Shown here piece by piece: positions 1 through 29,991 of a stretch of DNA of 29,991 bases. Source of the stretch: Psammoneis japonica (Eukaryota); contig QPGO01000181.1 of NCBI GenBank assembly GCA_008632985.1, forward strand, positions 124,001 through 153,991, read 5' to 3'. A program made the position numbers and the translations under genes. The stretch's first letter is position 1. Each line of letters starts with the position of its first letter. Below the pieces are notes generated by a model, which saw nothing but the letters and a program-made list of their open reading frames with translations, had not been told where the DNA came from and searched no databases.

Positions 1-267
1 GAACAGGATTTAGGTGCGCGTGAAATGTCGCGCGCTATTTAGTTCACCGTGCACAGTTTTGTGTGCTCTTTAGTTCCGCGCGCACGCGCGCGATGTAGTT
101 TGCTTTCGAGCCACAAGGCTCACAAGAATAACAACAGCAGCCCGATTATACCGACTTACACGTCTTTCGGCTCCTGTGACGGTCTCTGAGCGGAGACTCA
201 TCTGCCATTTAGACAGCAGTAAGGAGTTGTTGTTTGAATTCTTGCCATTTGCCTTCAATTTCTGTCA
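1..267 (+). repeat. 5' LTR of Copia copy 1 (truncated by window edge)
   Basis: Ungapped match to 4493-4759; ends TTTCTGTCA. Confidence 0.95.
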
Positions 268-282
268 GATTAACAGTCTTGC
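268..282 (+). promoter_or_regulatory. Putative primer-binding site, complementary to a tRNA-Asn(GUU)-like anticodon arm
   Basis: GATTAACAGTCTTGC directly abuts the LTR; its reverse complement GCAAGACTGTTAATC contains a CTGTTAA anticodon loop. Identical in copy 2 (26199-26213, minus strand). No TGG (anti-CCA) start. Confidence 0.55.
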
Positions 283-1088
283 TCATTGTCAACCCATTGA
301 GCAACCGCCATCGTCGTCGTTGATTTACCGACGACGCTATTTCAATTCTGCGTGGACCTCCGTATATATTCTACGTGTACATCGGCAAGTCTACGCGCAT
401 TCAATACCAGGCATCGGCAGGAATTTAACGTCACCGTCAAGTCTCCTTAACGCTGTATATCTGGATTGATTATACTACCTTTTATCGCTGAAGACATACA
501 TTCAACGGTTATATCCAAGTCTATCCTTGATCCTCATCCCTTCATATACCCATTCAACGGTTAACGGTCAAGAACCCTACATATTCAAAGATCTTCGTCG
601 CTGAAGACATATATATATCTTCACGGCCGAGAACTTGAACCCACTCTTTGGACTACGGCTTTGCTACCACTCTACAAGCACACCGAGTCTATTGTACCTG
701 ATCTACCCCGGACTACTGGTGCTCTACAGTTCTACTAGGTCCACAAGGACGACTGTGAGAGCAAGTGGCCGTGATTGCAGCCTACGTTGGGGCGAGGGTG
801 TTTTCCCGCGTTTGTTCGTTTGTCCACAGCGCCTAACGCCTACGTCAACTGGCCAGCCTGATCGGGAAATCCAACCGATATAAAATAAGAACGGTTCGGG
901 GGTCTTGTCCACCTCCAGTCAGCTCACCTGCAGGGGTTTACAACCCGCTACTCCGCTCGTAAGCAACCCAAAGCGCCACTGGCTGCGGGTTTGGACGTGC
1001 CGGCACAACTCTACGGACCGGATGGGAAGTTTAGCACTTAACAACGAACGGGACAGCACACCCCGGCGACTTCTGATTTTAAGATAGT

Positions 1089-1145
1089 TCAAGATTTCAA
1101 GTCAAGTCCATTTCAAGTCAAGTCCATTCCCACTCAAGTTTCAAG
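1089..1145 (+). repeat. Cluster of 7 TCAAG pentamers just upstream of gag
   Basis: TCAAG at 1089, 1097, 1102, 1113, 1118, 1134, 1141; similar CTTGA cluster at ~25221-25277 in copy 2. Confidence 0.8.
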
Positions 1146-1199
1146 TCTACCTCCGCGTCCTAACAAGAATCACTTGCCCTGACACCGCTTTTGTCCACC

Positions 1200-2720
1200 A
1201 TGGTTCTCACTCGTCAGCAACAAACCGATGGTTTCAAGCACGTTGTTGGAACCGTGCTTGCCCAAGGTGCTGGAAGCCCTCTTCGTTTGGCTTTGACCCA
1301 CGATGGCACGGACTCGCACCAAGAACTGTTCACGTTCATGCCTTCCCAAATCAACTCGCTTGAGTGCGACAACGGCACCAATGTGATCCCATTGCCCCGA
1401 GGTTGCAAGAACATGTTAGCAGCTCTAGTTAGCCTGTACATTGTCAAAGCACACAAGGGCCTTGATGTTGCCAATGACTGTTCGTTGTTCACGCATGATG
1501 AGTTCCTTGCCTGCCGCCTCAGTCCCGACTGCATGTCTTCTGTGTCCGTCAGCAGCTCACCTCTTGCACCTCCGCACGTCACCAACTCGACCAAGGCACA
1601 CGACCCAGTGCGAGAATTCAAGCGAGGCATCAAGCGTGACCCCACTGCTTTCACGGCTCTCAAATCTGACAAACAGTGGCACACTTGGCACACCTCACTT
1701 GTGGCACAAGCCCGTGCCCAAGAGGTCGAGTGCATTCTAGACTCATCGTACAAACCGACCAGCCCCGAAGACAAACTGCTCTTTGCTGAACAGCAAAAGC
1801 ACATGTTCGCCGTCTTCGAATGCATCCTTCTCACTGACAAGGGCAAATCTCTCATTTGTGAAAATGTGGGGTCTTCTGATGCCCAGACCGTCTGCCGCGC
1901 CTTGTCCGAGCATGCGCTCACCTCCACCCGTGCATCTATCGAGTCCTCCACCTTGCTCACGCACCTCACCACCACACGCCTTGGTGATGGCACTTGGAAA
2001 GGTCCAACCCACGGGTTCATCCTTCATTGGCAGGATCAGTTGCGCAAGTGCGAGGCACTCATCCCGGCCAGTGACCACTTCTCTGAAGGAAAGAAGTGCG
2101 TCATGCTCGAGAATGCCGCACATCCTGTTGAGGAACTCCGCGCCGTCAAGAACCAAGTTGATCAACATGGCACGCAGAGTGGCAAGAGCCTCACATGCGA
2201 TCAACATTGTGGCTTGCTCCTCTTTGCAGCGGCTCAATTCGACAGCATGTTTCAACCCAAGATGACACCTCGAGCTCCCGACCGTGCCACACAACGTCCA
2301 CTCCGAGGAACCATCCGATGATGTGTTCTGTGACATCGACAGTGACATTGACGTCCTTCAGGCTGACGCTGCCCACACCTGCAGTCCCAGCCTCACCGGC
2401 AACCAATGGAAACGTCTCCCTCCCGACCACCAGCGGATTTGGGATTTGTTGCCCAATTCCTCCAAGGCGATCATCCTTGAGCATTCTCGTCCGCCTCCTC
2501 GCAACCCACGAGCTGTCAACTGCCATGAGTCTGTTGCGGTCAACCTTCATGACCAACAACTTGGGAGTGACGGTGATGTCAACTTGTCCACCACGACTCT
2601 TGCTGACTCTGGTGATCCCGCTCCGAATGTGGATGCCCCCTCAGACAATCCCATTCTGGCGCATCTCACCAAGCGCAAGCCACCACCACCCGGTGATCTG
2701 CAATGCCTGTTGTCTCCTGC
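1200..2720 (+). pseudogene. Copia gag (frameshifted near 2285)
   Basis: ATG at 1200; FKRGIKRDP..F..LK, AQARAQ, LLTDKGK, FILHWQDQLR are motifs typical of diatom CoDi Gag; continues in ORF 2284-2925; near-identical to the copy 2 gag. Confidence 0.85.
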
Positions 2721-2767
2721 CCCAGCCCCCAAAGCCAGTCGACCGGGCCCATCCGCACCCGCCACCA

Positions 2768-4460
2768 CTGATCCTTCCATTCGAAACCTGCATCTTGATC
2801 CTCCTGATGGGGAGCCACCTGAACCCATCATCAAATCTCGCAATGATGACAACCCCGTCGATTCACCTGATGGGGAGATCAGGACACCCAAGATGCCAGT
2901 TTTCGATCCGCAAGACATCATCTGACGCACCTTCCTCATGCAGCCACAAGAGGACGGACAACGCCACAGAGCTCGCATCGTCAAGGCCGTCGAAGATCAC
3001 GACTGGAAAGTGAATGGCAACCCCGAGCTCACTAAGTTCGTCTGCTCTGTCAACAACGACGAATGCGAGGAAGTCCTGGCCTGCAACGACATCATGAATC
3101 ACATTGAGCAAGAAGACGAAGACACTGCTGTTTGGAAATTTCGATGCATTGTGTCACACAAAGGACCTCTGAAGCCTCATGACCCAACCTGGAAAGGCTC
3201 AAGCTGCAACATCATGCTTGAATGGGAAAGTGGGGAGATCACGTCCGAGCCTCTTGCCATCATCGCCAAGGACGACCCTGTCACCAAGGCCATCCATGCA
3301 CGAGAGAACGGACTTCTCGACACCGATGGCTGGAAGCAGTTCTGCATCATCGCGAGGCGCCAGAAGAAGCTGTTCCACATGGCCAACCAAGCCAAGCTTC
3401 GCTCCTTCCGCACTGCACCTCGCTGCAAGTGCGGACACGAAGTTCCCCGGAACTGCAAACACGCCATGTCCCTGGACGAACGCAACGGCAACCGCAAATG
3501 GGGAGACGCAACCAATCTCGAGATGGACCAACTCGAGATGGGTTCCAGTCCTAGGTGGGACTTTTTGTGACATTGGGCCCACAGAATTCTACGTGCGAGC
3601 TCCGTAGTAAAATTGTTAAGCAATGGATATGTGAATGATCGCCAACAGAAAAAGAGGCAATTTTGCGAACGTATCTCCTCCTCCACACTTGAAATACATT
3701 CTTTACAGCATGCCCGGGTACATTCTTTAGACATTAAAGAACACACCCAGCGCATGTTTATTGACACAAGCGCAGATAACAGAAAGCCTTTGGCTTCGCA
3801 AAACAGGCAGTGTGGAACAATTTTTTATAATGGAACACGTAGAAATGTACGTGCGAAACATGCGACGGATGATAAAAAATAATTATGTCACAGTTCAGTA
3901 GTACGAGGTCCCACCTAGAGCTGGAACACGTCTCGATGAATGTGAAGTCTTTCATGACTGCGGGCCCTCCGAGTCTTCCACTCCTCCTGCGGGACACAAG
4001 AAGATCCGAGTGCACCCAGTGTATGACGTGAAACACGACGGCCGCCACAAGGCACGACTCGTAGCCGATGGACACCTCACGGATGTGCCCATCGATGGTG
4101 TCTGCTCTGGAGCAGTCTCCGCAAGGACTTGTGTCGAGCAGATTATCGACCTGCGCATCACCCTGCGTCACCTCGGCATCCCGATCCATGACATTAGTTG
4201 CATGTTCGGTGACAACAAGTCAGTTGTGGACAGTGCCACCATCCTGCACTCCAAGTTACACAAGCGACACACTGCTCTGTCGTTCCATCGTGTGTGAGAG
4301 GCGATTGCCTCTGGTTGCCTTGAGTTCCAATTCATCGAAGGCTCCCGCAACCCTGCTGACATTCTTGGCAAGCATTGGGGTTGCTCCCAAATCTGGGACC
4401 TTCTCCGTCCCCTCATGTTTTGGAACTTCATTCCATCCGAAGTCGAATCTGTTTCTGTGA
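2768..4460 (+). pseudogene. Copia pol remnants: post-integrase region, RT N-terminus fused directly to RNase H; interrupted by a MITE
   Basis: WKFRCIVSHKGPL...EWESGEITSEPL; EVPRN..HAMSLDERNGNRKW; KARLVADGHLT...SGAVS joined in frame at ~4120 to ARTCVEQIIDLR...FGDNKSVV...LSFHRV...NPADILGKHW. No protease, integrase core or YVDD motif seen. Confidence 0.9.
3537..3932. mobile_element. 396-bp MITE / non-autonomous DNA transposon with 25-bp TIRs and TCGA target duplication
   Basis: TIRs 3537-3561 and 3908-3932 match at 21/25; TCGA at 3533-3536 and 3933-3936; removal restores the Copia reading EMDQLDE(C)EVF. Confidence 0.9.
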
Positions 4461-4470
4461 CTCCTCAAGC

Positions 4471-4481
4471 AAACTGGGGAG
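4471..4481 (+). promoter_or_regulatory. Polypurine tract of Copia copy 1
   Basis: AAACTGGGGAG immediately before the TG of the 3' LTR; same sequence at 21965-21975 (minus) in copy 2. Confidence 0.8.
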
Positions 4482-4759
4482 TGACAGGATTTGAACAGGA
4501 TTCAGGTGCGCGCAAAATGTCGCGTGCTATTTAGTTCACCGCACACAGTTTTGTGTGCTCTTTAGTTCCGCGCGCACGCACGCGATGCAGTTTGCTTTCG
4601 AGCCACAAGGCTCACAAGAACAACAACAGCAGCCCGATCATGCCGACTTGCACGTCTTTCAGCTCCTGTGACGGTCTCTGAGTGGAGACTCATCTGCTGT
4701 TTAGACAGCAGCAAGGAGTCATTGTTTGAATTCTTGCCATTTGCCTTCAATTTCTGTCA
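4482..4759 (+). repeat. 3' LTR of Copia copy 1 (278 bp)
   Basis: TGACAG...CTGTCA; matches 1-267 and, inverted, 21689-21964 and 26214-26489. Confidence 0.95.
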
Positions 4760-5440
4760 CAATTGCACAGACTTGACTGGCCCTCAGTCTACAATCTGAG
4801 CACCACCTGCACAGCAACACCACAAACTGTCCCGATCGGCACCGAATCTGAACACACTTTTGTCCTGCATCATCCAGAGTGAACACAAACTGTTTTTCAT
4901 CTTGCACCAAGCACCTGACACCACTTGCACTGAATGGAATCTTGTTCAAGTTAATCTTGAATGTGCTGTGGCTGAACACCCTAATGCCTTCTCAGATGGC
5001 AAGGCATGCATTGAATTCTTCACGCAACATCCACACGATGTGCAGTTCAATGCTGCAAATCAGCGTTTTTGGAAATGACATCACAAACTCAAAGGACGAT
5101 TCATTCTCCACAACAATTTCCATCTGCTCACCATCTCCAAATGAGCACAGTTATGCCAGTGAAAAAAGTCTTGTCGTTTTCTCTCAATGGGTTCACTTTA
5201 ATCACCCGGACATGTGTCATCATGGACCCTTCAACTTTGCCACGATCAACAGCAGGCAGACACCTGATCAAATGTCGGCTAAAGAATGGAACATTCTGTC
5301 AGCACTGTCTCAATGACATGAGAACGAACCCCCAGCAAACAGCTGTCATGCCTCTCTTTTTCACATCACATGAATGCACACAGTTTCACACTGTCCACCG
5401 AGACCCATCTGTAGAATCTCAAACATCTGCTCTCCTCAGT
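4760..5440 (+). pseudogene. Decayed retrotransposon pol C-terminal fragment (probably diatom Ty3/Gypsy post-integrase tail)
   Basis: KLFFI...EWNLVQV...DG...EFF..HP.D..FNAANQRFW and HGPFNFATINSRQT.D resemble, from memory, pol tails of diatom LTR elements; contains stops/frameshifts; TpA-depleted. Confidence 0.5.
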
Positions 5441-5499
5441 CATGAGCACATGCACAATCATTGGATGCTGAGCTGTCACAAGCTGTCACTTGAATGAGT

Positions 5500-7290
5500 T
5501 GCTCACCAAAAGATTGGCCCCCCCATCTCAAAAGATTGCCCAAAATGGGCACCCCCAAAATTTTCTTCTTGGCATTCACACCCCTCAGGTTTTTGCAACA
5601 ATGCTTTTTCTCCTGGCCCATCATAATCTCTCTCTCTGTCCCCATGATGTTCTGTCTGCTTTTCATTTGGATGTTGCAACAATGTGGCTTTTGCCATCTT
5701 CTCTGGGTGGCTTAAAAGCGGAGCTCATCCAAGCTGATGTCAGCAACTTCCATTCCAGAAAACCATTAGCCATTGGCACATAAATTGCCAATCACCAACA
5801 GTTTTCCCTCTTTCCTCACCACTTTTTCAGTTCACCATGGAGAGTGGCTCATAATCCATGCAGATGATCACTCGCTTTTTATGCCATTCCACTTTTAAGG
5901 TGTCACACAAAGACTCGCGTGCTGCACAGAGGATTCATGCAGGGCTGTGCAAATTAGACACCAGAGGTTGCACAGAAAAATGCAAAATCACCACACTCAT
6001 CCACAACCCAAAAGCAGTGGCAAAATTTCCATTCGTGGTGCGGTGAATCCCGCACTGGAAATTCTTGAAAAGATTTTCCCGGGACTCAACACGCACAACT
6101 TCAAGGAGCTGAACGACAATGATGTCTCTTTGCAAGACAAATGAACCACACATGCATGGAAAGATCATCAAGAGCAGATGTTGATTGCGATGGTCAAACT
6201 GCATCTCACACCTCAGTGTCCCAAGATGTCACAATTTAAAATCCAACGCCTTCATTTTGTGATTTGGCAGAAATCTGATGTGACATCTTCTGACATGATG
6301 GTGTGAGATGCAGTTTGACTCCCCAAACCTTCTTCCCCCACGCATGCTTGTGACACTTTGATGCCTCTTTCTTTGTGATGCTCAACATGTTGATAAAACA
6401 ATCACCGCTGAAAGTCTTTGCTCCACTCAGTCCACTCATCGCAGAATTAGCACTGCGGTCTGCCACCTGCGAGCAACAGCACACGAGTCTTTGTTTGGCT
6501 GTGGCACCCAGAAAATCCAGGGATTCAGTCCCGAGATTTCCATTTGTGACTGCTCTGTTTGCAGTGCCAACCCACTTTCCATGTGACATGGCACCACAAT
6601 GTTGTTTCATGTCAAGTTTTGAAAAGGTCTCAATGGGAAACGAACGGCAAAGGGTCTGGTCTACAAGAGATGCATCTGTCACAAGTGCACAGGTCTGAAT
6701 CCCGGGATTTTTATTTTTGAACATGTCAAAGAGATGTTGATGTTTTCTCATCGAAGTAAAAGCACCCATGTGAGGACTGAAATGTTTGCAATCAATGGCT
6801 GTGTGCTTTTAGAATAATTGGAGGGTCTGTGGTGTTGGAAAGGGTTGATCTGGAGAAATGTGTGGTGGGAGGGTTGCGCGGAGCGTGCTTGGGGCGGGAT
6901 GGAGAGAAAAGGGGTGGGCCAAAAGTGCGGACAGATGACGGTGGAGGAGAGGAGAAGTTGGCAAAACAGCAGGATCATGGCAAAGAAGAAGAAGAGCTTG
7001 GCATGCAGAGAGATGGTTGGAGAGAGCAAAGCCAAGGCTGAGGATTTGAGAGGCCCAGAGTTGAGGGGTTGTAGTGTGACAAGAGGAGCCGAAGCGGTCC
7101 AGTGAAAGTTGTTTCCCAGGCTGCATTGGAGTGCTGGACAAGGAGGTTTTGGATGGTGGGAGCAGTGAGTTGGTGAAAGTGGAGAAGGATGCTTGAGAGT
7201 TGGAAAGGGAGGATGGGCTTGTCCAGGGTGGTTTGGGAGGAAGGGGTGGGATGGAGGAGGATGTTGTGGTGGACGTGCCGAAGAAGAAAA
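5500..7290 (-). other. Unidentified decayed repeat/ORF remnant
   Basis: Strongly TpA- and CpG-poor like the neighbouring TEs; fragmentary ORFs (6236-6769) and a Pro/Ser-rich low-complexity segment 6800-7280; no recognisable domain. Confidence 0.3.
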
Positions 7291-7601
7291 CGTGGAAATG
7301 ATAAAAAAATGTATAATATTTATATTTATGCAACTACGTTTATGTGAAAAAAGCAATATCATCATGGATTTTCCGGGTTCGCGAAGATGATACCCTTCAA
7401 CAACGATGTTGACGTTGAGTTGTGGAGCGAGATCTATTGCATATAAGGTACTGTACACGGGGTAGGTGTCCCACTACTGTATTGCTAATTTTTTGGAAGT
7501 TTTGCATAGTTCATCATCGAGTTATTTTCCTTGCCCGGTCTCACGGTGATTTTCGGAGCATTCCCATAAGGCAGCTACCATACTTTCTTTCGCGAGAAGC
7601 A

Positions 7602-8360
7602 ATGAAGTTCAATATCTTTTTCCTTTCCTCTTTCGTCGCTGCTGTAAGAGGATTTGCACCGGTGTGTACTGATCATGCTAAGCCGGCGTCCGTGGGTGCC
7701 ACGAAAACCGACCTTGAAGCAATCGCCGAGAAGTGCAACCCAATAGTCAAGTTCTACGACCCACTCAACCTTGCTGATGCCAACTTTTGGGGTAAGGGAT
7801 CCGAGGCAACAATTGGATTTCTCCGTCAGTCAGAGATTAAGCACGGTCGCATCGCAATGTTTGCGTTTGTTGGTTATGTTGTTCAGTCAAACGTCCACTT
7901 TCCTTGGCCCCAGACCCTCGCCGGAGCCGCCCATCCTTCTACTGACTTGAGTCCAGAGGCGCAGTGGGATGCGGTCCCTCTGGGGGCCAAATGGCAGATA
8001 TTTGCAGTGATAGCCGCATTGGAGCTCTGGGATGAGTGCGGGGGTGGCACTCTTCCTCATTACATGAATGGGCGCCAGCCTGGCAAGTATCCGAGCTTTC
8101 AGCCGTTCCGAGACGCCGTCCATCCCGTTTTTGATTTGTATGATCCATTCGGTTTCAACTCGAAGATGACCGACGATGTCAAGGAGCGCCGTCTCATTGC
8201 GGAGATCAACAATGGACGCTTAGCCATGCTTGGAATCTTCGGGTTCTTGTGCGCGGATAAGGTCCCTGGATCGGTACCTCTTCTAAATGACGTCGCTATT
8301 CCTTACCCGGGCGATCCGATGGTTCCTTTTGAGGGACAGTTCTCATACTTTGGCAACTAA
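7602..8360 (+). CDS. Fucoxanthin-chlorophyll a/c light-harvesting protein (LHC; Lhcq/Lhcf16-like), 252 aa, intronless
   Basis: Signal peptide ending ...VRG-FAP (ASAFAP-type plastid signal); helix motifs EIKHGRIAM and EINNGRLAM; YDPLNL and YDPFG motifs. True start is ATG 7602, not 7422. Subfamily assignment is tentative. Confidence 0.95.
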   Translation: MKFNIFFLSSFVAAVRGFAPVCTDHAKPASVGATKTDLEAIAEKCNPIVKFYDPLNLADANFWGKGSEATIGFLRQSEIKHGRIAMFAFVGYVVQSNVHFPWPQTLAGAAHPSTDLSPEAQWDAVPLGAKWQIFAVIAALELWDECGGGTLPHYMNGRQPGKYPSFQPFRDAVHPVFDLYDPFGFNSKMTDDVKERRLIAEINNGRLAMLGIFGFLCADKVPGSVPLLNDVAIPYPGDPMVPFEGQFSYFGN

Positions 8361-8390
8361 ACTAACGGGAAATAAGGTACTGATAGATAT

Positions 8391-8487
8391 CTGTTACTTG
8401 TCCTGAGTTTGACTTGTGGAACATTGCTTGTGCATGCCCTCTGTTAGTCCTGAGTTTGAATTGCGGAATATTGCTTGCGAATGCCGC
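8391..8487. repeat. Imperfect ~47-50 bp tandem duplication in the LHC 3' region
   Basis: ctgtta(ctt)gtcctgagtttga.ttg.ggaa.attgcttg.g.atgcc occurs at 8391 and 8441. Confidence 0.75.
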
Positions 8488-8727
8488 CCTTCCCTTAATC
8501 AAGGTTCATTCCTGCTAAAGCAAGTTTTCCGGAGCATCGCTCTCTTCTTGTTGTTTTTGGAATGAAGCTGTCCTAACCCATGTTACCAACACAAAAGAAA
8601 TGTCAGCTCTACATGAACGATGGGCGCTGCAAGAGGCAGGAGCTGACGGGTCAGAAGCGGCTGGCAGGATAATCTGATACCCATTGAGAAACAGAGCAGT
8701 TGTTTCCGGGATAGAACCATCATTGTC

Positions 8728-10206
8728 TTAAGCACTGAACGAAGTGGCTTCAAGACACAAACGCAGGCAAGTATTTCGGCAGTAACAGGTAACAGCCTCG
8801 CGGCCCGCGCAGCCGACATCATCTTCGTCATTCCACCTCGCAATGGAATTCCATATCTCAGAAAACACCATCCAAGTTTCAGGGTCGTGTCTTTTCAATT
8901 GTCCATTCGTGAAGGGAAAAAACTTGTTGCAATGCGAGAAGCGACCAGTGTGGACATCGCGTTGTTCAGACGAGTTCCGTAACCGGCGAAGCACGCTGAG
9001 GTACCTCGGAGAACACCAGAAATCTTCTTTCTTCTTCACATTATCTGCACCCGCTGCATCATTGGGAATTCTATGGCCATGCAAAATCGAGTAACCTCTC
9101 CGGTGCATCCGTTCTACAACATCAGGGGATGTTAGCGGGGGAGAAGCCCGTTTCATACACGACCCATCCTCGTCATCCAGATTGTGATAACCATCGCTTA
9201 GGTATGTCACAGACAACTCGGCGAAAAACTCCTTGTGATTGACCATAGCATAAGCTTCAGTGCAATTTTACAAAAACGGTGAGCAGTGAGAATTTCCAGT
9301 CACTCGTCAACAAGACGGCCAAGAACGGTTGTGAGCTGGCCACTTACCCACATCATTCTCGCAGTCCAACCCTGCCCAGTCTCGCCTTACCGAAAAAATA
9401 GTCCGAAAACATAGAATGATGAAAAACCACAACAGCACAGGAAAGAAAATAACCACACATCCTTGGAGAGCAACGCACCGGAGAGTCCGGTCGTAAAGAC
9501 CGCTGGCTTTCGCTCTCTCGTAGGCATCCTTGACAACAGCGTTGTCCAAACCATCTGGTAGCACTTTTTGGTGCACCAAGTGGCAAATCTCGTGGAGGAT
9601 AAGACCACATCCCTACGACAACGTTTCGAATCGGTGACAAAGTGAAACTCTTCGTGAGCGCAACGCGAATGAACACTGTTGTGGACTAAGTCTTGCTCCT
9701 CACCTGCCAGTGGTTACGCATCGACCGGTACTCAAAACAATTATAGATTTCAATCCCATTCACTTTCTCTGGCTTGTCGCGGGCCCTTGATTTTTGGATA
9801 AAAAAATACCTGTGATTTTGAGAACGCGCGATAATCCGAAGAGTCGTCAAACGAACGATACGACAACGCACCAAAGCAGCCATCCTTCGTGGTGATGTGC
9901 AATCGTGTGGTTGACACGTCGAGGATTTACCCGCGGTCCATAACAATACTTAGCATTTATCCAGATGTTTGTACGCCCCACAAGACGATGCACCGATGAA
10001 GGCAAAATGCCCAAGCAGGCAGACAAATCAGCGTTGAGATCACCGAGGATGAATGGACATCGCAACAATACATCTGGGCGGCACCGCGTTTGAACACCGC
10101 AACGAAGCTTTATGGGTATGTATGTGAGCCCTGAGTTGTTAATGAGAGAGCAAAATTGCTGTGACTTTTCCGTCATATGGATGTCATTCTCAAAATTCAT
10201 TGCCAT
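8728..10206 (-). CDS. Five-exon zincin-type (HExxH) metallopeptidase-like protein; start codon uncertain
   Basis: GT-AG introns 9786-9871, 9613-9703, 9386-9478 and 9255-9347 splice in frame to give ...HHHEGWLLWARDKPEK...HWQGCGLILHEICHLVH...YDRTLRRDWAG...AYAMVNHKEFFAELS...FFPF...LKRHDP (HExxH plus a downstream Glu ligand). Confidence 0.8.
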
Positions 10207-20256: not shown

Positions 20257-20600
20257 TTTTCTTGTGCGTGCAAATTGCACTGGAAAAACCCCCAAACGCA
20301 CTGGCGATCAGACCGCCTTCAACGATCTCACTTCCAAAGACGCCCCCCAAGTAGCCTCTATCCCGCGTGATGAGTTCGTGCACGTGTGGGCACGAACGCA
20401 GAAGTTCGTGCCCCTGGGGGCACGAACGACGCCCTGGTAGAATTCGTGCCGAGTTTTACGTGAAAGGACACATCGTCTCCCATTGACAACATCAAAACAA
20501 GCGACACGCCTCTTGTGAAACAAGATGATGTTCCTGACTACTGCCATTGCTCTGGTGGTCGAAAAGATAATTTCATCACTGCTACAATTATGTGTGACTG

Positions 20601-21688
20601 TCACTGGTTCACAATGGCTGGGTGACAGTGCACAAAGCATGTGTGCACGCCAGCGATTGGTCGATCCCTGTTTTTCCCATCGCGGTACGTTGACGAATCT
20701 TGAAAGTACGGGACACCAGCGCTTTCCGGATGGGGGCTATCACAGCAGTGCCATTGTCTACAGCCAGAGCAGTGCCAATGTGTCTTGCAGTCACACAAAA
20801 TGCATCGTGCCAAAGCTCCACTCCCTTTCTTACTTCCGTCATTTTCATTTGCCCTGAACACAGGTGTGCCGCGACAACTCTTGAATCGCTTAGAAGGGAG
20901 CTATTCAGAACTGTCCTTTGGTTTTAGCAGAGCTTGTGGGTGGGAACGCTTGGGGGACTTTCCAGTTTCTTTTGCTACAAAATTGGTTGGCTCCTTTTGG
21001 ATTTCACCGCACAGCCACCCAGGCCGGGCCACTGGAGTTGCTGGCGATGGTGTGACGATCGTTGTAAAGGGTGAAGGAGTTCCGGCACAACTTGGGAGGT
21101 TTTGCTGGCTCATCTTCTTGAAAAAAAACTTTGACAATAGAAGGAGTGCTTTTCTGAAGCTCATCTTGTGCTTTGCATCGTCTCTGAAGTCGTGAAGGGA
21201 TTTGCACTCGTTGAGATCTTCCTTGGTGATAAACATGGTAGCGCCTTTGTGGATGCCGGACAGTGCTGTCATTTTCATGCGGTCATGTGCCTTAGCTCCA
21301 GCAGATGTGACAGGAATTGGGGCTGATTGGCTTTGGCAGCACTGGGTTTTGACGTCAGACCCATGCTTGGTGTTGTTCCAGTGCGCATCCTGCATGGGAA
21401 TAATCCTTTCACACAGTGGGAGTGGCAAGTGCTGAGGCTTCGTCAGTTCTTTCCAAAAGTACACTGATTTCATAAATGACTCACAGTCCACCTTTACTCA
21501 TGCAGTTTTCACAGCAGCCTTGAGCTCTTTGGTTGGAACGTCGACTCCCTCCTTGCACGCCCACTTCAACGCCGACTCATGCATGTCGTCAATGCACTTT
21601 TTGTAGTTTTCAAGGAACTCATCGGAGCACTCAATCACCACCATTGCTGTAAGGCCCACTCTGTCTCCAGTGGCAAGAATGACATGGT
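20601..21688 (-). pseudogene. 3' part of a piggyBac-like transposase relic with C-terminal Cys-rich domain
   Basis: One frame with two stops (21498, 20901); WNNTKHGSDVKTQ resembles the piggyBac YNxxKGGVDxxDQ motif; RCILCDCKTHWHCSGCRQWHC at the C-terminus. Confidence 0.6.
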
Positions 21689-21964
21689 TGACAGAAATTG
21701 AAGGCAAACGGCAAGAATTCAAACAACAACTCCTTGCTGCTGTCTAAATGGCAGATGAGTCTCCGCTCAGAGACCGTTGCAGGAGCCGAAAGATGTGTAA
21801 GTCGGCACAATCGGGCTACTGTCATTGTTCTTGTGAGCCTTGTGGCTCGAAAGCAAACTGCATCGCGCGCGAATGCATGGAACTAAAGCACACAAAACTG
21901 TGCGCGGTAAACTAAACAGCACGCGACATTTCACGCACACCTAAATCCTGTTCAAATCCTGTCA
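21689..21964 (-). repeat. 3' LTR of Copia copy 2 (276 bp)
   Basis: Reverse complement of the copy 1 LTR; preceded by the PPT on the minus strand. Confidence 0.95.
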
Positions 21965-22498
21965 CTCCCCAGTTTGCTTGAAGAGTCACAGAAACAGATT
22001 CGACTTTGGATTGACTAAAGAACCTTGGAGTCAAAGCACCAAAACATGAGGAGACAAGAAAGGATCAAGATCCTGGAGCAACGCTGCATTCTCCAAGTGG
22101 GTCATCTTGAGATGAGCTGCGTCTCCCCAATTGTAGATGCCGTTGTGCTTTTCAAAGCTCAAGGCACACTTGGGATCTTGTGGGATTCCACATCCGCACT
22201 TGCAATGGAAGGAGCAAAGCTTGGTCTGGTTGACAATGTTGAACGGCGGGGCAACATCGCAGGACAATGCAAACAAGTTGACATCGCCTTCACTTCCTGA
22301 GCGAAGGTCGTAAAGACTGATGGCCGTCTGTTGGTTCTTGGAACGGTCGCCACACTGGGTTGCTGCTAGAAAAACAGAGCAGTGCTCGTGCAGGGTGGCA
22401 TGGCGTTTGCACGACTCGGGGAACAGAGCAAGCATGAGTTCAAAGGCACAAGCGGTGGTCTTGTGTTCCACCAATCCGATCGCAAGCTCAGCTGCATC

Positions 22499-23422
22499 TC
22501 CTGAGAGACTGATCCAATTGGAGAAACGAGTCTCAAGGTGCAAGCCTTCAGGGATCGGATTGGAGCAAGACATCTTGTGGTGCAAGGCTGCAGATGTCTG
22601 ATTGGGGCAACCAGTCCCGTGCTGCAAGACTTCTGGGATCCAAAAGGACTTGCCAGTCTTGTGACACGAGCCTTCGGGGATCCAATCAGGAGGCCAAGTC
22701 TTGAGGTGTGAGACTTGGAGGATCCAATCAGGAGGCCGAGTCTCATGGCGCAAGACTTGAGGGATCCAATCCGAAGGCCCAGTCTCGAGGCACGAGACTT
22801 GAGGCATCCAATCAGGAGGCCTGGTCTCGAGGTACGAGACTTGGGGCATCCAATCAGGAGGCCTGGTCTCAAGGCACGAGACTTGGGGCATCCGATCAGG
22901 AGGCCCAGTCTCGATGTACGAGACTTGAGGCATCCGATCAGGAGGCCCAGTCTCGAGGTACGAGACTTGGGGGATCCAACCAGGAGGCCCAGTCTCGAGG
23001 CATGAGACGTGGAGAGTCCAGTTGGGAGGCCTGGTCTCAAGGCACGAGACTTGGGGCATCCGATCAGGAGGCCCAGTCTCGATGTACGAGACTTGAGGCA
23101 TCCGATCAGGAGGCCTAGTCTCGAGGTACGAGACTTGGGGGATCCGACCAGGAGGCCCAGTCTCGAGGCACGAGACTTGAGGCATCCAATCAGGGGGCCC
23201 AGTCTCGAGGTGCGAGACTTGGGACATCCAATCAGGAGACCTGGTCTCGAGGTACAAGACTTGGGGCATCCAATCAGGAGGCCCAGTCTCGAGGTACGAG
23301 ACTTGGGGCATCCAATCAGGAGGCCCAGTCTCAAGGTACGAGACTTGGGGCATCCAGTCAGGAGGCCTGGTCTTGAGGCACGAGACTTGGGGCATCCAAC
23401 CAGGAGGCCCAGTCTCGAGGCA
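22499..23422 (-). repeat. 42-bp minisatellite (~18 conserved + ~4 degenerate units) reading (Y/C/H)LETGPPDWMPQVS
   Basis: Unit gagacttggggcatccaatcaggaggcccagtctcgaggtac; two further units lie near 23575-23640. Confidence 0.95.
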
Positions 23423-23772
23423 CAATGCTTGGAGGATCCAAAGACAACGAAGCTGCTTGGATGTCCTGAACTCCCCATCTGATGAACCAGTTGAACTGTT
23501 GTGAACAGATTCAATGATGGGAAAAGGAGGCTCCCCATCAGGAGATGCGAGAAGCTATGAGACCAGGCCTCCTGTCAGGAGGCCTGGTCTCGAGGCACAA
23601 GACTTGGGGCATCCAACCAGGAGGCCCAGTCTCGAGGCACGATGCTTGGAGGATCCAAAGACAATGAAGCTGCTTGGATGTCCTGAACTCCCCATCTGAT
23701 AACCCAGTTGAACTGTTGTGAACAGATTCAATGATGGGAAAAGGAGGCTCCCCATCAGGAGATACGAGAAGC
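23357..23772. repeat. 199-bp direct duplication (23357-23555 / 23574-23772) with a fold-back palindrome at the junction
   Basis: 217-bp period; GAGACCAGGCCTCCT-gtc-AGGAGGCCTGGTCTC at 23559-23591. Confidence 0.9.
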
Positions 23773-23789
23773 AAGTTGTCATCTCCATC

Positions 23790-25166
23790 ACTTCCCAAAC
23801 GAAGGTCATGAAGGGTGACAGCGGTGGACACGTGGAGGTTGGCAGCACGTGGTTTGCGGGGAGGCAGACGAGAATGCTCAAGGATGATCGCCTTGGAGGA
23901 ATGGGGCAACAAATCCCAAATCCGTTGGTGGTCGGGGGGGAGACGTTTCCATTGGTCACCGGTGAGGCTGGGACCGCTGGTGTGGGCAGCGTTAGCCTGA
24001 AGGACGTCAATGTTGCTGTCGATGTCATAGAACACATCATCGGATGGTTCCTTGGAGCAGACGTGGTGTGCGCACATGGCATGTCGGGGAGCTCGAGGTG
24101 TCGTCTTGGGTTGAAACGCACTGTCGCATTGGGCCGCCGCAGAGAGGAGCAAGCCACAACATTGATCATGTGTGAGGCTCTTGCCACTCTGCGTGCGATG
24201 CTGATCAGCTTGGTTCTTGACGGCGCGGAGTTCCTCGACAGGATGTGCGGCATTCTCGAGCATGACGCGCTTCTGTCCTTCAGAGAAGTTGTCACTGGCC
24301 GGGATGAGTGCCTCGTACTTGCGCAACTGATCCTGCCAATGAAGGATGAACCCGTCGGTCAGACCTTTCCAAGCACCATCACCAAGACGTGCGGTGGCAA
24401 GGCACGTGAGCAAGGTGGAGGACTCGACAGATGCGCGGGTGGAGGCAAGCGCACACTCGGACAAGGCGCGGCAGACGGTCTGGGCATCAGAAGACCCCAC
24501 ATTTTCACGAATGAGAGCCTTGCCCTTGTCGGTGAGAAGGATGCGTTCGAAGACGGCGAACATGTGCTTTTGCTGTTCAGCAAAGAGCAGTTTGTCTTCG
24601 GGGCTGGTCGGTTTGTACGACGAGTCTAGAATGCACTCAACGTCTTGGGCACGGGCTTGTGCCACAAGTGAGGTGTGCCAAGTGTGCCACTGCTTGTCGG
24701 ATTTGAGAGCCGTGAAAGCGGTGGGGTCACGCTTGATGCCTCGCTTGAAGTCTCGCACTGGGTCGCGTGCCTTGGTCGGGTTGGTGACATGCGAAGGTGC
24801 GAGGGGCGAGCTGCCGACGGACACAGAAGACATGTGGTCGGGGCTGAGGCGGCAGGCAAGGAACTCCTCATGCGTGAACAACGAGGAGTCATTGGCAACG
24901 TCGAGGCCTTTGTGTGCTTTGACAATGTACAGACTAACTAGAGCTGCTAACATGTTCTTATAACCACGGGGCAAAGGGATCACATTAGTGCCGTTGTCGC
25001 ACTCAAGCCAGTCGATTTGGGACGGTATGAACGTGAACAGTTCTTGGCACGAGTCCGTGCCGTCATGGGTCAAAGCTAAACAAAGAGGGCTTCCAGCACC
25101 TTGGGCAAGCACGGTTCCAACAAAGTGCTCGAAACCATCGGTTTGTTGCTGACGAGTGAGAACCAT
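23790..25166 (-). pseudogene. Copia gag of copy 2 (frame open but hypermutated)
   Basis: ATG at 25166; colinear with 1200-2580; many expected Tyr positions read Cys/His. Confidence 0.85.
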
Positions 25167-25733
25167 GACAGACAAAAGCGATGTCAGGACAAGCGATTCT
25201 TGTTGGGAGGCGAAGGTAGACTTGAAACTTGGGTGAGAACAGACTTGACTTGAAACAGACTTGACTTGAAATCTTGAACTACCTTAAAATCAGAAGTCGC
25301 CGGGCTGTGCTATCCCGTTCATTGTCAAGTGCTAAACTTCCTATCCGGTCCGTAGAGTTGTGCCGGCACGTCCGAACCTGCAGCTGGTGGCGCTTTGGGT
25401 TGCTTGCGAGCGGAGTAGCGGGTTGTAAACCCCTGCAGGTAAGCTGACTAGAGGTGGACAAGACCCCCGAACCGTTCTTATTTTACATCGGTTGGATTTC
25501 CCGATCAGGCTGGCCAGTTGACGTAGGCGTCAGGCACTGTGGACAAATGAACAAACGCGGGAAAACACCCTCGCCCCAACGTAGGCTGCAATCACGGCTA
25601 CTTGCTCTCACAGTCGTCCTTGTGGACCTAGCAGAACTGCAGGGCACCAGTAGTCTGGGGTAGATCAGGTGCAATAGACTCGGCGTGCTTGTAGAGTGGC
25701 AGCAAAGCCGCAGTCCAAAAAAGTGGGTTCAAG

Positions 25734-25957
25734 TCCTTGGCCGTGAAGATGTGTGTGTGTGTATGTCTTCAGCGACGAAGATTTTTGAACATGTGGGGTT
25801 CTTGACCGTTAACCGTTGAATGGGCATATGAAGGGATGAGGATCAATCCTTGGCCATGAAGATGTGTGCATGTGTGTCTTCAGCGACGAAGATCCTTGAA
25901 CATGCAGGGTTCTTTACCGTTAACCGTTGAATGAGTGTTTCAAGGGATGAGGATCAA
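25734..25957. repeat. ~112-bp tandem duplication in the 5' UTR of Copia copy 2
   Basis: Units 25734-25846 and 25847-25957; only one full unit in copy 1 (~526-632). Confidence 0.85.
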
Positions 25958-26213
25958 GGATGGACTTGGACATGACCGTTGAATGTATGTCTTCAGTGAT
26001 AAAAGGTGGCACAATCAATCCAGACATCCAGCGGTGAGGAGACTTGACGGTGACGTTAACTTCCTGCCGATGCCTGGTGTTGAATGCGCGTAGACTTGCC
26101 CGATGTACGTAGAACACACACGGAGGTCCACGCAGAATTGAGAGCGTCATCGGTAAATCAACGACGACGATGGCGGTTGCTCAATGGGTTGACAATGAGC
26201 AAGACTGTTAATC

Positions 26214-26489
26214 TGACAGAAATTGAAGGCAAATGGCAAGAATTCAAACAGCAACTCCTTGCTGCTGTCTAAACAGCAGATGAGTCTCCACTCAGAGACC
26301 GTTGCAGGAGCCGAAAGACGTGCAAGTCGGCACAATCGGGCTACTGTCATCATTCTTGTGAGCCTTGTGGCTCGAAAGCAAATTACATCGCGTGCGAACG
26401 CGCGGAACTAAAGCACACAAAACTGTGCACGGTAAACCAAACAGCGCGTGACATGTCACGCGCACCCAAATCCTGTTCAAATCCTGTCA
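26214..26489 (-). repeat. 5' LTR of Copia copy 2 (276 bp)
   Basis: Matches the other three LTRs; followed by the PBS on the minus strand. Confidence 0.95.
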
Positions 26490-26870
26490 GTTGACTCCAA
26501 GAGTGCTTGCATGATGAGCACACTGTAGCGAGGAAGTTGTGGAGACAGAGGTGAGTCACTGCAACAATGACAGTTTCGAATTGCCATTCCGTTTAGCAGC
26601 TCACCTGCACTGCCTCCGAACGCTTGAGCACGAACTTGCGCAATTCAGGTGAATCACATGACACAACAGAAAAATTCACCAACTTGGGAGATGCGCTGAC
26701 GCTCCTTGGCGGCGGCAGCAGATTTGCAACGTGCCTTCATCTCAACAACCGCAACGATGCACTTGCCATCTATTGTGCCAGTGCAAAGGAAGTCTGGACT
26801 GTCCTTTTGATGAGGGCGATTTTGCTTCTGCAGCAGGCCGGCTCTGAAGAGATTATTTGCAACAAAGACT
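26490..26870 (-). pseudogene. YqaJ/lambda-exonuclease-like PD-(D/E)xK domain, upstream part of the 20601-21688 relic
   Basis: GLLQ...P...DSPDFL...VVEMKAR; intron 26523-26604 gives EAVQCAHHASTLGVN, which continues HVILATGD across the Copia insertion. Confidence 0.65.
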
Positions 26871-26981
26871 GACCCGTTTTCGAGTCTCACTCCTTCGCCG
26901 CTTGCAACGCCAAGAAAATCTTTTCCGCACTGTTCTTACAATTCTGCGAATGTTGGCATTGATTTTACCTGCGTGTTTTCA

Positions 26982-28850
26982 ATGCCAGGCTCTCCGCAGA
27001 ACTTCCGACCCACCATGGCATCTTCTTCCGTCGCCGACGGCAGCCACACCCCTCCTAAGAACAATGGTGACACCATGGCGGATGATGTTGCCCTTGATCA
27101 CGCATCCACCAAGCTTTCTTCCAAACCGAAAGAGCGACAATTCGAGGAGATTACTCTCCGTTTTGACATTCGTGGCCCAGAGGCGTCGTGCAAACCCATG
27201 ACCCTTGCTGCGGCTCACCTCCAAGTCTTACAACAGATTCTGTTTACATGCCAATCCGATGCAAGGATCTTTGACAACCACAACAACCGAATCACGAACA
27301 TCAACGTGGCCAAGTGGATTTCGTCCCTGCAGCATGAACATCATTTTGTGGTTTCAACAACTCGCAGCGGTGAAAAACGTCCCGTCACTCATCGACTTTG
27401 TCATCGCATCCTCACCAAGGTTCCTCTTAAAGAAATTCGTGCTCACCCTCACATTCAATCTGTTCTTGACTTGAACAATGTGGGCATGAAACGTCATCAT
27501 TGGAATGAATCTGTTGTTGATGCGGCCACTCCGGCATGCTGTGTTGCAACTCCATCCAAGCATGCACCAGTTGAAGAAGCCACCAAATTGTTCACAAAGG
27601 ATCTTGGCGAATTCAAGACCAAGATGCCACAATTCCGCTTGATTCTGACTGCCATTCATGCGGACAATGATCATTTGGCTCCTCCGATTCGTACAGTGAC
27701 CTGTGCCATTGAAGTGCAGCTTGGCGATTGCCGCACCGCGGGAAAAGCCCTTTTGCATGCGTCCAACAAGCTGCCAACTCACATTGTCCTGGCTAAGACT
27801 CGTCACTTGTCTCCCCTTGCCTTTTGCAATGCTGCAAAAAATTCAGGCCCGCCGCAATCAAGACACACATGTGGTCCCCTTGCTGCACACGAATCCCGAC
27901 CTGATGTTTTATTTCGAAAATCACATTAAAGCCATCAAGGGAGTCAAGGCAATTTACGCGACAAATGCCACCTCAGGACGTTACAACATTTTGGTCCAAA
28001 GAGCCAAGTTCAAAGCTGCCCGTGCCGCCATCTCTGCGTGTGTCATGGATGAAATTCCAAATGTTCCAGAAGAATCATGGCCTTCTGCTCCCTTTTCCAG
28101 ATCATCCCCAAGCATCTGGTGTGTTTGAAGAGCAATCCAATGCCAGCAAGTCCATTGTGTCAGCTGGCATTCGCAGCCTTGAATCATTGACTTTCTCGGA
28201 TGTTTCCCCATTGACCGACACCCAAGCACCCCGATCTGATCCTTCACACTTGACTCATCCGTCTGCTGGCAGAGGGGCCGGTCACGGTGGCATGCCTGGT
28301 TGCGGAACTGCACAGGGTTCTGCGGTCCCTCCACATGTTTTTACCCAGTCAAACGAGCACACTCCATCTTCCTTGCAACCTCTCCGATGTTCTTGCGGGA
28401 TGCAGGGACATCCTGGCATGCAGTCTCCTTCCTGCTCCTGTGCTCAAGCTACTCAGTCATCTACAAGTTCGTCTCTAACGTCCGTTCAGATGGCGGAAGT
28501 TCAACAGCAGCTGAATCAAATGAAGGCCAAGACTGACCAAGCCTTGGAGGAACTCCGTGCTCAACACTCAAAGGAGATTGAATCATTGCACAGTGCATTT
28601 TCCAAACAGCATGCAATGACATGGCAGCATTGCAAGATGCCAACACTGAACAGTTTTCCAGCATGCAGGACAAAATGAATCAGATGGTCACCATGCTCCA
28701 AGCATCTCAACATGCTTTGCCTCCAGCTCGGAAACAACACAACCACATGGAAACTCCAGAATGCTCCTATGATCACACGGACAAAGAGCAGGATTTTTAG
28801 CCAGGGGTTGGATCTCGCCATCTCCACCCCCTCAAACATTAAGGTGCCCT
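26982..28850 (+). pseudogene. LINE ORF1 remnant (frameshifted), with low-complexity and coiled-coil C-terminus
   Basis: Chained ORFs 26973-27929, 27703-28128 and 27965-28678; EVQQQLNQMKAKTDQALEELR; lies upstream of the endonuclease. Confidence 0.6.
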
Positions 28851-29149
28851 CCTGACATCCGTCCTCGAGTGTCTGCTCTGCTTGCTCTCTCTCACATTTT
28901 TTGTCGGACTTCCCGACATTGGACTTTCACCCTTCCTTCAAAGATCTACAACTCATCCATGCTCTCATCCTTCGGTTCAACCTGCTGGCAGCGCTGCAAG
29001 CCCCAGTCTTCTCTTCGGAGGAGCGTGGCCCAACCATGAGCAGCACTGTTTCAACAGACGCATCTTCTTCTACATGGCAGACTCTTTTGGATGGCAGATG
29101 GTTTCAACCTTCAGCCGGACGATGCATTGATTTCTCCTGACTGCAGACC

Positions 29150-29991
29150 AATGAGTCCGTTGGTGACCCTGTGAGGCCCAAGCTCTCACATCATGCCCGA
29201 CTGTGTGCCTTCAATGCAAACGGTGGCAAGTTCGACAAACGTGGAGGAGACTTTGCTGCGTGCTGTCAGATTACGAATGAGATGCAGGCTGACATTGTGG
29301 GCATGTGGAAGTTTGTTTGGACACTGCTCAGCATTCGGTTTTGTCGGTTTGCCGCTCAACGGTGACAAATTCCCTCCATCACGGCAGAGGCACCTTCTCT
29401 TGCAGCTCAACTCCTTTCTCTACACAATGTGGACCTGGTGGTGTGGCCTCATTATCATGCAATGCGGTGTCTGCTCGCTGCTGGTCTCAGGAGGCTGATC
29501 CGTTAGGCCATTGGTCTATCCAGACATTCGATGGCAGGAATGGCAGACAAGTCATGTTCATTTCATGCCACCGAGTTTGCACCAAAAATCAAACAAGGCC
29601 TGGGAAAACAACAGCACATGCTCAGCAGCTTCATCTTTTGCGTCAACAGGGCCACCAGCACCCAGACCCTCGTAAAGCATTCTGCACTGACTTGTCTCGT
29701 TTGTCACAAGAGTTTCTTTCAGATTCCAACCGTGAGGTTGTTGTTTTCGGAGACTTTAACACGGACTTCGTTATTGACACTGACTCTCTGTCTACTTTGG
29801 CCCAACGATTCAATCTTTCCAATGTGATGTTTTCTCTCACAGGCGACACAGCTTTTTCTACTTACACAAGGGGGTCAAAACGTTTGGATTTCGTTTTAGC
29901 TACTCCTGGTGCTTTGGCTGCTGCACGCTTTGGTGGCCATGAAGCCTTTGGATGTCGCATTACTTCGGATCATCACGCTTGCTTCGTGGAC
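29150..29991 (+). pseudogene. LINE ORF2 apurinic-like (EEP) endonuclease remnant
   Basis: AFNANG, ADIVGM.E, DPLG(H)WS, VVFGDFN, TYTRGSKRLDFVL and ITSDHHACFVD motifs across frameshifts. Confidence 0.85.

Follow-up and report, generated by a model that had tools for sequence, protein, structure and literature searches.

Of the 302 nuclear single-nucleotide mutations recorded in mutation-accumulation lines of the alga Bigelowiella natans, 231 fell in two integrated viral regions, and 230 of these 231 were A>G or T>C changes, all stated to lie on TpA (Mettrop et al., bioRxiv 10.64898/2026.01.13.699255). The main sections of that preprint put the rate in these regions at ~6e-7 per site per generation, ~1000 times background, in some lines only. 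They also report that TpA-poor coding sequences of B. natans are enriched in RT, EN-RT, and DDE domains, and propose an ADAT2-like adenine deaminase (10.64898/2026.01.13.699255). Here, we describe a footprint of this kind in a diatom, in a 29,991-nucleotide stretch of the Psammoneis japonica genome (GenBank assembly GCA_008632985.1, contig QPGO01000181.1, positions 124,001 to 153,991, forward strand), hereafter the window. The window holds two long terminal repeat (LTR) elements, A and B, a tyrosine-recombinase (YR) retroelement, a long interspersed nuclear element (LINE)-like element, and two host genes (Table 1). In our judgment, it is likely that a DNA-level process changes TpA to TpG or CpA in place on integrated mobile DNA in this diatom and spares genes. 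What is new is a TpA hypermutation footprint in diatoms, near-saturated in retrotransposons; until now, a single preprint was the only source for this kind of footprint. A full-text literature search for the TpA signature, in diatoms or elsewhere, found only that study (10.64898/2026.01.13.699255), in whose main sections we found no mention of diatoms; an earlier note on the present DNA, which knew of no described system with this signature, is thus out of date on that point.

The direction of change is best read from conserved tyrosine codons. Five transposon frames were aligned with database relatives, and only columns with agreement among at least 60% of them were counted. In the Copia fragment of element A (120 relatives), none of eight Tyr columns is kept (five read Cys, and one each His, Trp, and Gly), compared with 109 of 134 other conserved columns. 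The gag frames of A and B, each aligned with 53 full-length relatives, keep one of 10 Tyr columns (four Cys, two His, two Phe, one Gln; other columns, 100 of 135) and two of 10 (six Cys, one His, one Phe; other columns, 124 of 167), respectively. The reverse transcriptase (RT) frame of the YR element (150 relatives) keeps three of seven (two Cys, two Trp; other columns, 220 of 248), and the YR frame itself (79 relatives) none of 10 (five Cys, three His, one Trp, one Phe; other columns, 175 of 213). Pooled over the five frames, 6/45 Tyr columns are kept versus 728/897 other conserved columns (Fisher p 3e-21). Among the 39 lost Tyr, 29 are now Cys (22, codon TGY) or His (7, codon CAY), each a single TpA change away from TAY. 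One of the losses, in the YR frame, is the C-terminal Tyr of the motif "IDv.Y," which reads "IDVMC"; as it follows the HxxR and GRW motifs, this residue is probably the catalytic Tyr of the recombinase.

Overall amino acid composition shows the same shift. Intact relatives contain 3.9% Tyr in the Copia set, 3.7% in the gag-like set, 3.4% in the YR set, and 2.8% in the RT set, with 1.0% (Copia) and 1.8% (RT) Cys. The Copia frames of the window have 0-0.5% Tyr and 3.4-4.2% Cys, and the LINE-like frames 0-0.4% Tyr, 3.1-5.2% Cys, and 4.7-6.2% His. The light-harvesting protein encoded in the host segment keeps seven of eight Tyr relative to Chaetoceros Lhcq8, and none has turned into Cys or His. 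A protein database search for gag sequences of the same family gave best relatives just 46-53% identical, with no Tyr-poor member. The peptides quoted in the earlier note are all present: RCKCGHEVPRNC at 3421-3456, and KCEAL versus KYEAL, GCKN versus GYKN, and FCDID versus FYDID in the two gag copies. At the lost columns, the outgroups carry Tyr rather than Cys or His, and the direction of change, as judged from these alignments, is TpA to TpG or CpA.

Dinucleotide composition is consistent with this direction. Over the whole window, the observed/expected ratio (O/E) is 0.32 for TpA, 1.40 for CpA, 1.33 for TpG, and 0.77 for CpG; it is 1.14 for ApA, 1.17 for TpT, 0.94 for ApT, and 1.18 for TpC. 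In the pooled transposon-derived parts, there are 282 TpA where 1263.7 are expected (O/E 0.22), compared with 122 versus 213.0 in the pooled host part (O/E 0.57; transposon versus host, binomial p 4e-16). The extreme is 1751-3500, where 1750 bp contain two TpA against ~85 expected (values by segment are given in Table 1). Host non-coding bins at 7251 and 8251 have TpA O/E of 0.85 and 0.93, that is, they are without depletion. The process is confined to the transposon-derived part of the window, and the adjacent host DNA is at a normal level. For comparison, 79 intact Copia relatives from metagenome loci have a median TpA O/E of 0.69 (minimum 0.31), although this baseline leans to unmutated copies because both search patterns with which the loci were chosen contained Tyr. 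The GC content is 54-59% in the A core, B, and the YR element versus 47-49% in the host part, and TAA and TAG triplets together number 0.9 per kb in 1751-3500 versus 16.1 per kb in the host part. Since these two stops have been almost erased, the 30-kb window holds 108 stop-to-stop frames of at least 100 amino acids, spread across all six frames.

Several lines of evidence bear on when the changes occurred. An element integrates with two identical LTRs. Element A now has 11 TpA in its 5' LTR and four in its 3' LTR, and bases differ between the pair at 7/22 TA sites, 4/40 CG sites, and 8/203 other sites. When all four LTRs of A and B are aligned, one ancestral TpA can appear as TA, CA, or TG in different LTRs. 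Elements A and B are 89% identical over 2692 aligned bases, and their commonest double difference by far is CA in one copy against TG in the other (25 cases; the next class has five). Each such pair requires that a dinucleotide was hit twice independently, once on either strand. Three conserved gag Tyr columns read His in one copy and Cys in the other. The ancestral TpA content can be estimated by allotting ~2 of the 25 opposite outcomes to CpG-derived sites and doubling the rest to allow for same-outcome hits. This gives ~133 ancestral TpA in the 2692 aligned positions (4.9%), close to the intact-relative median of 4.6%; therefore, the common ancestor of A and B was normal in this respect, and nearly all of the loss came later, copy by copy. 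Within the tandem array of B, with the consensus taken as ancestral, TpA has been lost in 11 of 18 units (eight T>C, three A>G), at a per-base change of 0.31 at TA, 0.14 at CG, and 0.08 elsewhere. In other words, the change happened in place, after integration, separately in each copy, and on both strands. An exact 30-base LTR pattern searched for in metagenome contigs had no matches.

The array region (22666-23441, also 22517-22640 and 23349-23772) has features of its own. Together with a 217-bp higher-order repeat, the array takes the place in B of the stretch that separates gag from the RT fragment in A. Its sense frame is a 14-residue repeat in which the Tyr position varies among Y, C, and H.

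The depletion is regional. It crosses the LTR boundary of A into the adjoining relic and ends within ~250 bp at 7250, ~350 bp upstream of the host start codon (the bin at 7001 has a TpA O/E of 0.08 and that at 7251 of 0.85). The claim that every old transposable element here is TpA-poor and CA/TG-rich stands, in that the depletion is real and strong, with the qualification that it is patchy: three zones are spared. First, positions 1-1000 of element A have a TpA O/E of 0.95, beyond which TpA content falls gradually over ~1000-1750, and within 1-750, A keeps TA where B has TG or CA at 32 sites, with the reverse at three. Second, 3532-3931 has 0.76 between flanks of 0.12 and 0.20. Six contigs of a DNA sequencing run (X1) connect 3531 directly to 3932; this segment, absent from the other family copies and near-normal in TpA, is a younger insertion that escaped. 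Third, 25251-25750, inside element B, has 0.67-0.82. The patchiness of the tracts and the escape of younger insertions would fit a process that acts in episodes.

Copy number may not decide which DNA is hit. Summed contig depth, which is a rough guide to copy number only, is 36,000-156,000 over 1-5336 and ~9500 over 10735-12051. The host genes, by comparison, stand at 30-43 (30 from 8672 onward) and the YR element at 52-83, ~2-3 times the host level. By this measure, the low-copy YR element is strongly depleted (0.25), while element A, although very abundant, has 1 kb left untouched (0.95). For this reason, we do not accept as shown the earlier description of the process as repeat-restricted. 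Its companion claims hold better: host genes are spared (light-harvesting Tyr included), and a directional A>G change at TpA on both DNA strands of mobile or silenced DNA is borne out by the Tyr columns, the LTR pair, and the opposite outcomes in sister copies. The observations that the note named as refuting its view also come out in its favor: the outgroups have Tyr at these columns, single-copy DNA is not equally depleted (host 0.57 versus transposons 0.22, in this window), and contigs of a DNA run reproduce the sequence.

With respect to sequence context, A<->G differences between A and B, sorted by the 5' base with strands pooled, number 54/460 after T, 50/649 after C, 25/606 after G, and 19/577 after A. 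The differences after C are CpG decay. The process is specific to TpA, and ApA, GpA, and ApT are unaffected. It should be noted that the excess of A:T>G:C at TpA is not exclusive, as CpG decay and background changes accumulated too. CpG decay has run in this DNA as well, as a process of its own: CpG O/E is 0.32-0.78 in the elements, the YR frame keeps 20 of 31 conserved Arg, and eight of the 11 lost ones now read His, Trp, Gln, or Cys. It does not track the decay of TpA, given that the A core has a CpG O/E of 0.78 with a TpA O/E of 0.12, and the relic 0.32 with 0.14. The relic at 4760-7250 has the strongest CpG depletion of the window, with only one to three CpG in certain 250-bp bins.

The bases flanking the dinucleotide also matter. 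Relative to intact relatives, the surviving fraction of TpA is 0.04 in ATAT and 0.07 in ATAC/GTAT, rising to 0.46 in CTAG and 0.50 in CTAA/TTAG. The excess of Tyr>Cys over Tyr>His (22:7, p 0.008) is in keeping with a preference for a pyrimidine 3' of the TpA. A strand-by-3'-neighbor test on 54 polarizable sites gave a trend toward TAY (12:5 versus 3:5) that is not significant (p 0.19).

Four known or suggested processes can be set aside on composition and context. Error-prone repair of the Pol-eta type (WA>WG, where W is A or T), a candidate of the earlier note, fails because A<->G differences after A are the lowest class (19/577 versus 54/460 after T) and ApA is at 1.14. The modified-adenine route proposed alongside it, through N6-methyladenine (6mA) at ApT, finds no support, as ApT is not depleted (0.94). 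Decay of 5-methylcytosine (5mC) at CpG is present, yet it cannot account for the loss of TpA, which is not proportional to the loss of CpG. Repeat-induced point mutation (RIP), with its C>T changes at CpA, would leave the opposite footprint from the TpA of 0.32, CpA of 1.40, TpG of 1.33, and raised GC relative to host seen here; on these last two processes, the note was right.

Traces of a similar process can be found in other sequences. A Copia relative on a metagenome contig (L069, positions 1-2759), without nucleotide similarity to the window, has a TpA O/E of 0.31, and 13 of its 25 conserved Tyr positions read TGY (seven) or CAY (six). From its codons, it looks half-way through the same hypermutation, and it is the sole such case among the 79 loci selected with Tyr-containing patterns. 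Among database relatives of the YR and RT frames, protein P0303 keeps none of nine Tyr (five Cys, three His, one Ser), and P0227 and P0264 keep none of four and none of five, with Cys or His at 4/4 and 3/5, respectively; a further database protein, P0244, is likewise Tyr-poor. The footprint therefore exists in other public assemblies.

There are also observations that weigh against a targeted process on mobile DNA. The host TpA O/E of 0.54-0.65 is itself below 1, though near that of intact transposon relatives. The analysis covers a single 30-kb window, with specificity for mobile DNA leaning on ~3 kb of host sequence, and the GC increase exceeds what TpA loss alone predicts. In the four-LTR alignment, parsimony assigns four singletons to TA>TG/CA and five to apparent TG/CA>TA, and of the 44 variable columns, 20 are shared or homoplastic. 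Parsimony is unreliable when sites are hit repeatedly, so the polarity was taken instead from the outgroup proteins, the LTR pairs, the opposite outcomes in sister copies, and the consensus of the array. Nearly half of the A-B transitions (109/221) lie at neither TA nor CG sites as scored, although some of these are former TA or CG sites. Contigs of run X1 reproduce the window with 0 differences over 4736-5836 (TpA O/E ~0.1), 7240-10299, and 12392-13015, but the run is possibly that of the window's source sample, with library type unrecorded, so this read check is not independent. Among 40 of the 1367 read differences, a sample too small to use, four toggle TpA and 15 toggle CpG. Finally, a mutation-accumulation study of the diatom Phaeodactylum reports, in the text available, a GC>AT bias with CG, CC, and TG as mutagenic contexts and no TpA effect (PMC6604790).

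Weighing these points, we propose the following scheme. A:T>G:C changes would be made at TpA, a step that is its own complement, and either strand of the integrated mobile DNA could be hit. The action would take place in regional tracts with sharp edges, sparing neighboring genes, non-coding flanks, and younger insertions, and in old elements it would run close to saturation, destroying Tyr codons and TAA/TAG stops. The adenine preceded by T may be deaminated by a polynucleotide deaminase of the ADAT2/TadA type. This chemistry, which the preprint also proposes, is the one that we favor, although only tentatively. The natural tRNA substrate of ADAT/TadA is A34, which always follows U33, a context that would explain TpA specificity and that the preprint discusses too. 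We know of no natural enzyme identified in any alga that deaminates adenine in DNA at TpA. The sharp edges, the spared 5' end of A, and the apparent independence of copy number suggest recruitment by a chromatin or RNA-guided domain signal rather than by DNA homology. The process may serve as a defense against mobile DNA.

Because TpA is its own complement, the sequence cannot tell whether the attacked base is A or T. Thus, the closest competing chemistry starts from thymine: a TET/JBP-type dioxygenase would hydroxylate the T of TpA in silenced repeats to 5-hydroxymethyluracil (5hmU) or a derivative, and occasional pairing with G at replication, or mis-repair, would yield T>C. The signature would be symmetric and the outcome identical to that of adenine deamination. 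There is some precedent, in that a dinoflagellate TET/JBP homologue is reported to make 5hmU, mostly on repeats, and to aid transposon silencing, and older work on C. cohnii, as cited there, found T replaced preferentially in TA and TC (PMC11572971). TpC is not depleted in the window (O/E 1.18), and base-resolution mapping of 5hmU in Breviolum is described as showing no sequence preference (PMC11071213). Strong mutagenicity of 5hmU is, moreover, an assumption, and we regard this route as unlikely. Diatoms are not known to have 5hmU or a TET/JBP gene, although no search was made.

Editing could alternatively accompany retrotransposition, if an ADAR/ADAT-like enzyme edited the element RNA (UA>UG) or cDNA and the edited copy then integrated, as in APOBEC-edited retroelements. 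The affected elements are mostly retroelements, and Tyr>Cys, the result of sense-strand A>G, outnumbers Tyr>His 22:7. Even so, the idea is highly improbable, because it is chiefly at TpA that the two LTRs of a single element have diverged (11 versus 4), the array diverged in place (with eight T>C against three A>G on the plus strand), and the depletion passes LTR boundaries into the relic and halts at a gene. Sense-strand T>C is also common, as seen in the seven Tyr>His changes and in the excess of CpA over TpG on the sense strand of element A.

It is equally hard to credit that no targeted mutation took place, and that the pattern stems from TpA-poor lineages (through UpA selection or GC-biased gene conversion) or from a modified-base sequencing or assembly artifact. 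A mild deficit of TpA is general (0.57 in the host part, 0.69 in intact relatives), element A belongs to a family so abundant that ectopic conversion is possible, and, as noted, the read check may use the source sample. Yet the replacement of conserved Tyr, a probably catalytic one among them, means that the proteins are dead, not adapted; biased conversion would favor all A/T to G/C changes, and ApA and GpA sites are unaffected; opposite TG/CA outcomes in sister copies require two independent hits; contigs reproduce the window sequence; and the unrelated contig L069 carries the same codon changes.

Returning to a targeted process, a broader history can be imagined, which we consider possible but doubtful. 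In this scenario, diatoms and chlorarachniophytes would share an old, enzyme-driven DNA-editing defense, in which a deaminase or a dioxygenase is recruited to silenced chromatin domains, not to repeats as such, changes TpA on either strand of integrated mobile or viral DNA, and prefers ATAT or ATAC/GTAT. A DNA adenine deaminase would be the first natural one in such a role, a counterpart of engineered adenine base editors. If the footprint in diatom retrotransposons is indeed that of B. natans, the process would not be one species' curiosity, and it may be widespread in algae of the stramenopile-alveolate-rhizarian (SAR) group. Enzyme candidates could then be sought among genes common to affected lineages and absent from unaffected ones, and diatoms are transformable and editable. 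There are practical consequences as well. For annotation, hypermutated elements bear long spurious frames in all six frames, and profile searches largely fail on them. For dating, ages based on LTR divergence would be inflated unless TpA and CpG sites are masked.

The layout of the window is given in Table 1. Pfam was scanned on 20 long frames and then on 149 of 191 stop-to-stop frames of at least 70 amino acids; the remaining 42 comprise the light-harvesting frame plus 41 frames whose first base lies at 22712 or further on. In the frames scanned, only RVT_1, Exo_endo_phos, and the light-harvesting domain were recovered. Within the 149 of 191 frames, neither 4760-7250 nor 20260-21688 gave a match to a Pfam family, so the "DNA-transposase relic" named in the earlier note could not be confirmed. 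One frame of the 4760-7250 relic (6751-7473, minus strand) translates to Pro/His/Ser-rich low complexity.

Table 1. Features of the 29,991-nucleotide window, with TpA observed/expected ratios (O/E) for the main segments
Feature	Positions	Strand	TpA O/E	Remarks
LTR element A	1-4759	+		Copia-derived deletion derivative; basis: self-BLAST, LTR alignments
Element A, 5' LTR	1-267			TG..CA ends; window edge removes first 11 nt
Element A, spared zone (5' LTR and leader)	1-1000	+		Normal TpA content
Element A, core	1001-3531		0.12	CpG O/E 0.78
Element A, gag	1164-2318	+
Element A, fragment preceding and entering RT	2926-3567	+		120 PF07727 homologues, identity up to 64%
Insertion in copy A	3532-3931			400 bp; absent from other family copies; near-normal TpA
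Element A, 3' part	3932-4759		0.20
Element A, 3' LTR	4482-4759			TG..CA ends
Unclassified repeat relic	4760-7250		0.14	Depleted for TpA and CpG; CpG O/E 0.32, CpA 1.67, TpG 1.62
Host segment	7251-10391			Two genes
Host promoter and light-harvesting gene	7251-8357		0.65
Fucoxanthin chlorophyll a/c-binding (light-harvesting) protein gene	7602-8357	+		Host gene; PF00504, E 2e-25
Second host gene region	8358-10391		0.54
Second host gene	8400-10177 (start coordinate approximate)	-		Spliced, not hypermutated; introns 9255-9347, 9385-9477, 9612-9702, 9785-9870 (86-93 bp each)
Scaffold gap	10392-10617			226 N
Abundant 1.3-kb element	10735-12051		0.41	Inserted in terminal repeat of YR retroelement; moderately TpA-depleted
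YR (DIRS/Ngaro-like) retroelement	12052-20259	-	0.25	Terminal direct repeats; RVT_1 and homologues
YR element, YR frame	12485-14359			Other frames in the element as well
YR element, RT frame	15006-17375
Unclassified DNA	20260-21688
LTR element B	21689-26489	-	0.30	Sister of A, inverted; LTRs 26489-26214 and 21964-21689
Tandem array in element B	22666-23441			42-bp units, ~18.5 in the TRF row; 18 whole units counted span 22666-23421
LINE-like element	26490-29991	+	0.18	Continues past window end; endonuclease domain 29293-29991, PF03372, E 9e-9

The closest solved relatives of the light-harvesting protein are photosystem-I fucoxanthin chlorophyll a/c proteins of the diatom Chaetoceros gracilis (Lhcq8, 6l4t; E 1e-122 and 3e-122), and on this ground the window was taken to be nuclear DNA from a diatom or near relative. 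The introns of the second host gene are defined by four GT..AG joints (reading the minus strand) in one contig of a second run, X2, which extends to 7525; the gene is expressed and spliced, and a Pfam scan of its exonic frames gave no match. Run X2 is labeled "DNA?" yet is RNA-like, as this spliced contig indicates, and the transposons have no or almost no X2 cover.

The terminal repeat of the YR element is split by the 1.3-kb insertion, as 10618-10734 and 12052-12220 jointly match 19978-20259 by self-BLAST. The 117 bases beside the N gap (10618-10734) are 99% identical to 19978-20094 in the other terminal repeat, compared with 94.7% for the adjoining part (12052-12220 versus 20091-20259); this difference could be an effect of collapse or gap-filling. 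In addition, run X1 contigs hold a second version of the YR element at similar depth, with 47 differences over 487 bp and 53 over 583 bp (~90% identity), which is a paralogue or a diverged haplotype.

It remains to compare the locus with known systems. Fungal RIP shares with it irreversible, dinucleotide-targeted transitions on both strands, in tracts, that inactivate mobile DNA and leave a footprint. RIP acts by C>T mainly at CpA, so that TpA is enriched and GC lowered, whereas in the window TpA is destroyed and GC rises. RIP also needs duplication and a sexual cycle, whereas here a low-copy element is hit and an abundant one is partly spared. Decay of 5mC at CpG likewise yields TpG and CpA and is at work in the same elements, but it is unable to remove TpA. 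A-to-I editing that prefers a 5' U (as in metazoan ADAR hyperediting, ADAT2/3-dependent mRNA editing of filamentous fungi, and engineered TadA base editors) has in common with the window the A>G change after T or U. The natural systems of this type act on RNA, whereas in the window both strands of the DNA carry the change, which became fixed once the elements had integrated.

The likeness to B. natans is closer. As far as the main sections of the preprint describe that system, in both cases A>G or T>C changes turn TpA into TpG or CpA on integrated foreign DNA, and both show TpA-poor, CpA- and TpG-rich tracts that are patchy or episodic. There are differences in host and in stage. B. natans is a rhizarian alga, and the present case is a diatom, a stramenopile. 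For B. natans, there is a direct measurement of the rate, made on viral insertions (giant virus and virophage) that are, by the account given there, still TpA-rich (Rho 0.45 in the nucleocytoplasmic large DNA virus [NCLDV] region). The window presents the end state alone, near saturation (O/E 0-0.3), in LTR, YR, and LINE retroelements. To the B. natans case, it adds a ranking of flanking bases, of which the abstract, Results, and Discussion of the preprint give none, though its supplements may hold such data, and evidence that the process acts after integration and independently on each copy. On this comparison, the process seen in the window is probably of the same kind as the TpA-only hypermutation of B. 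natans.

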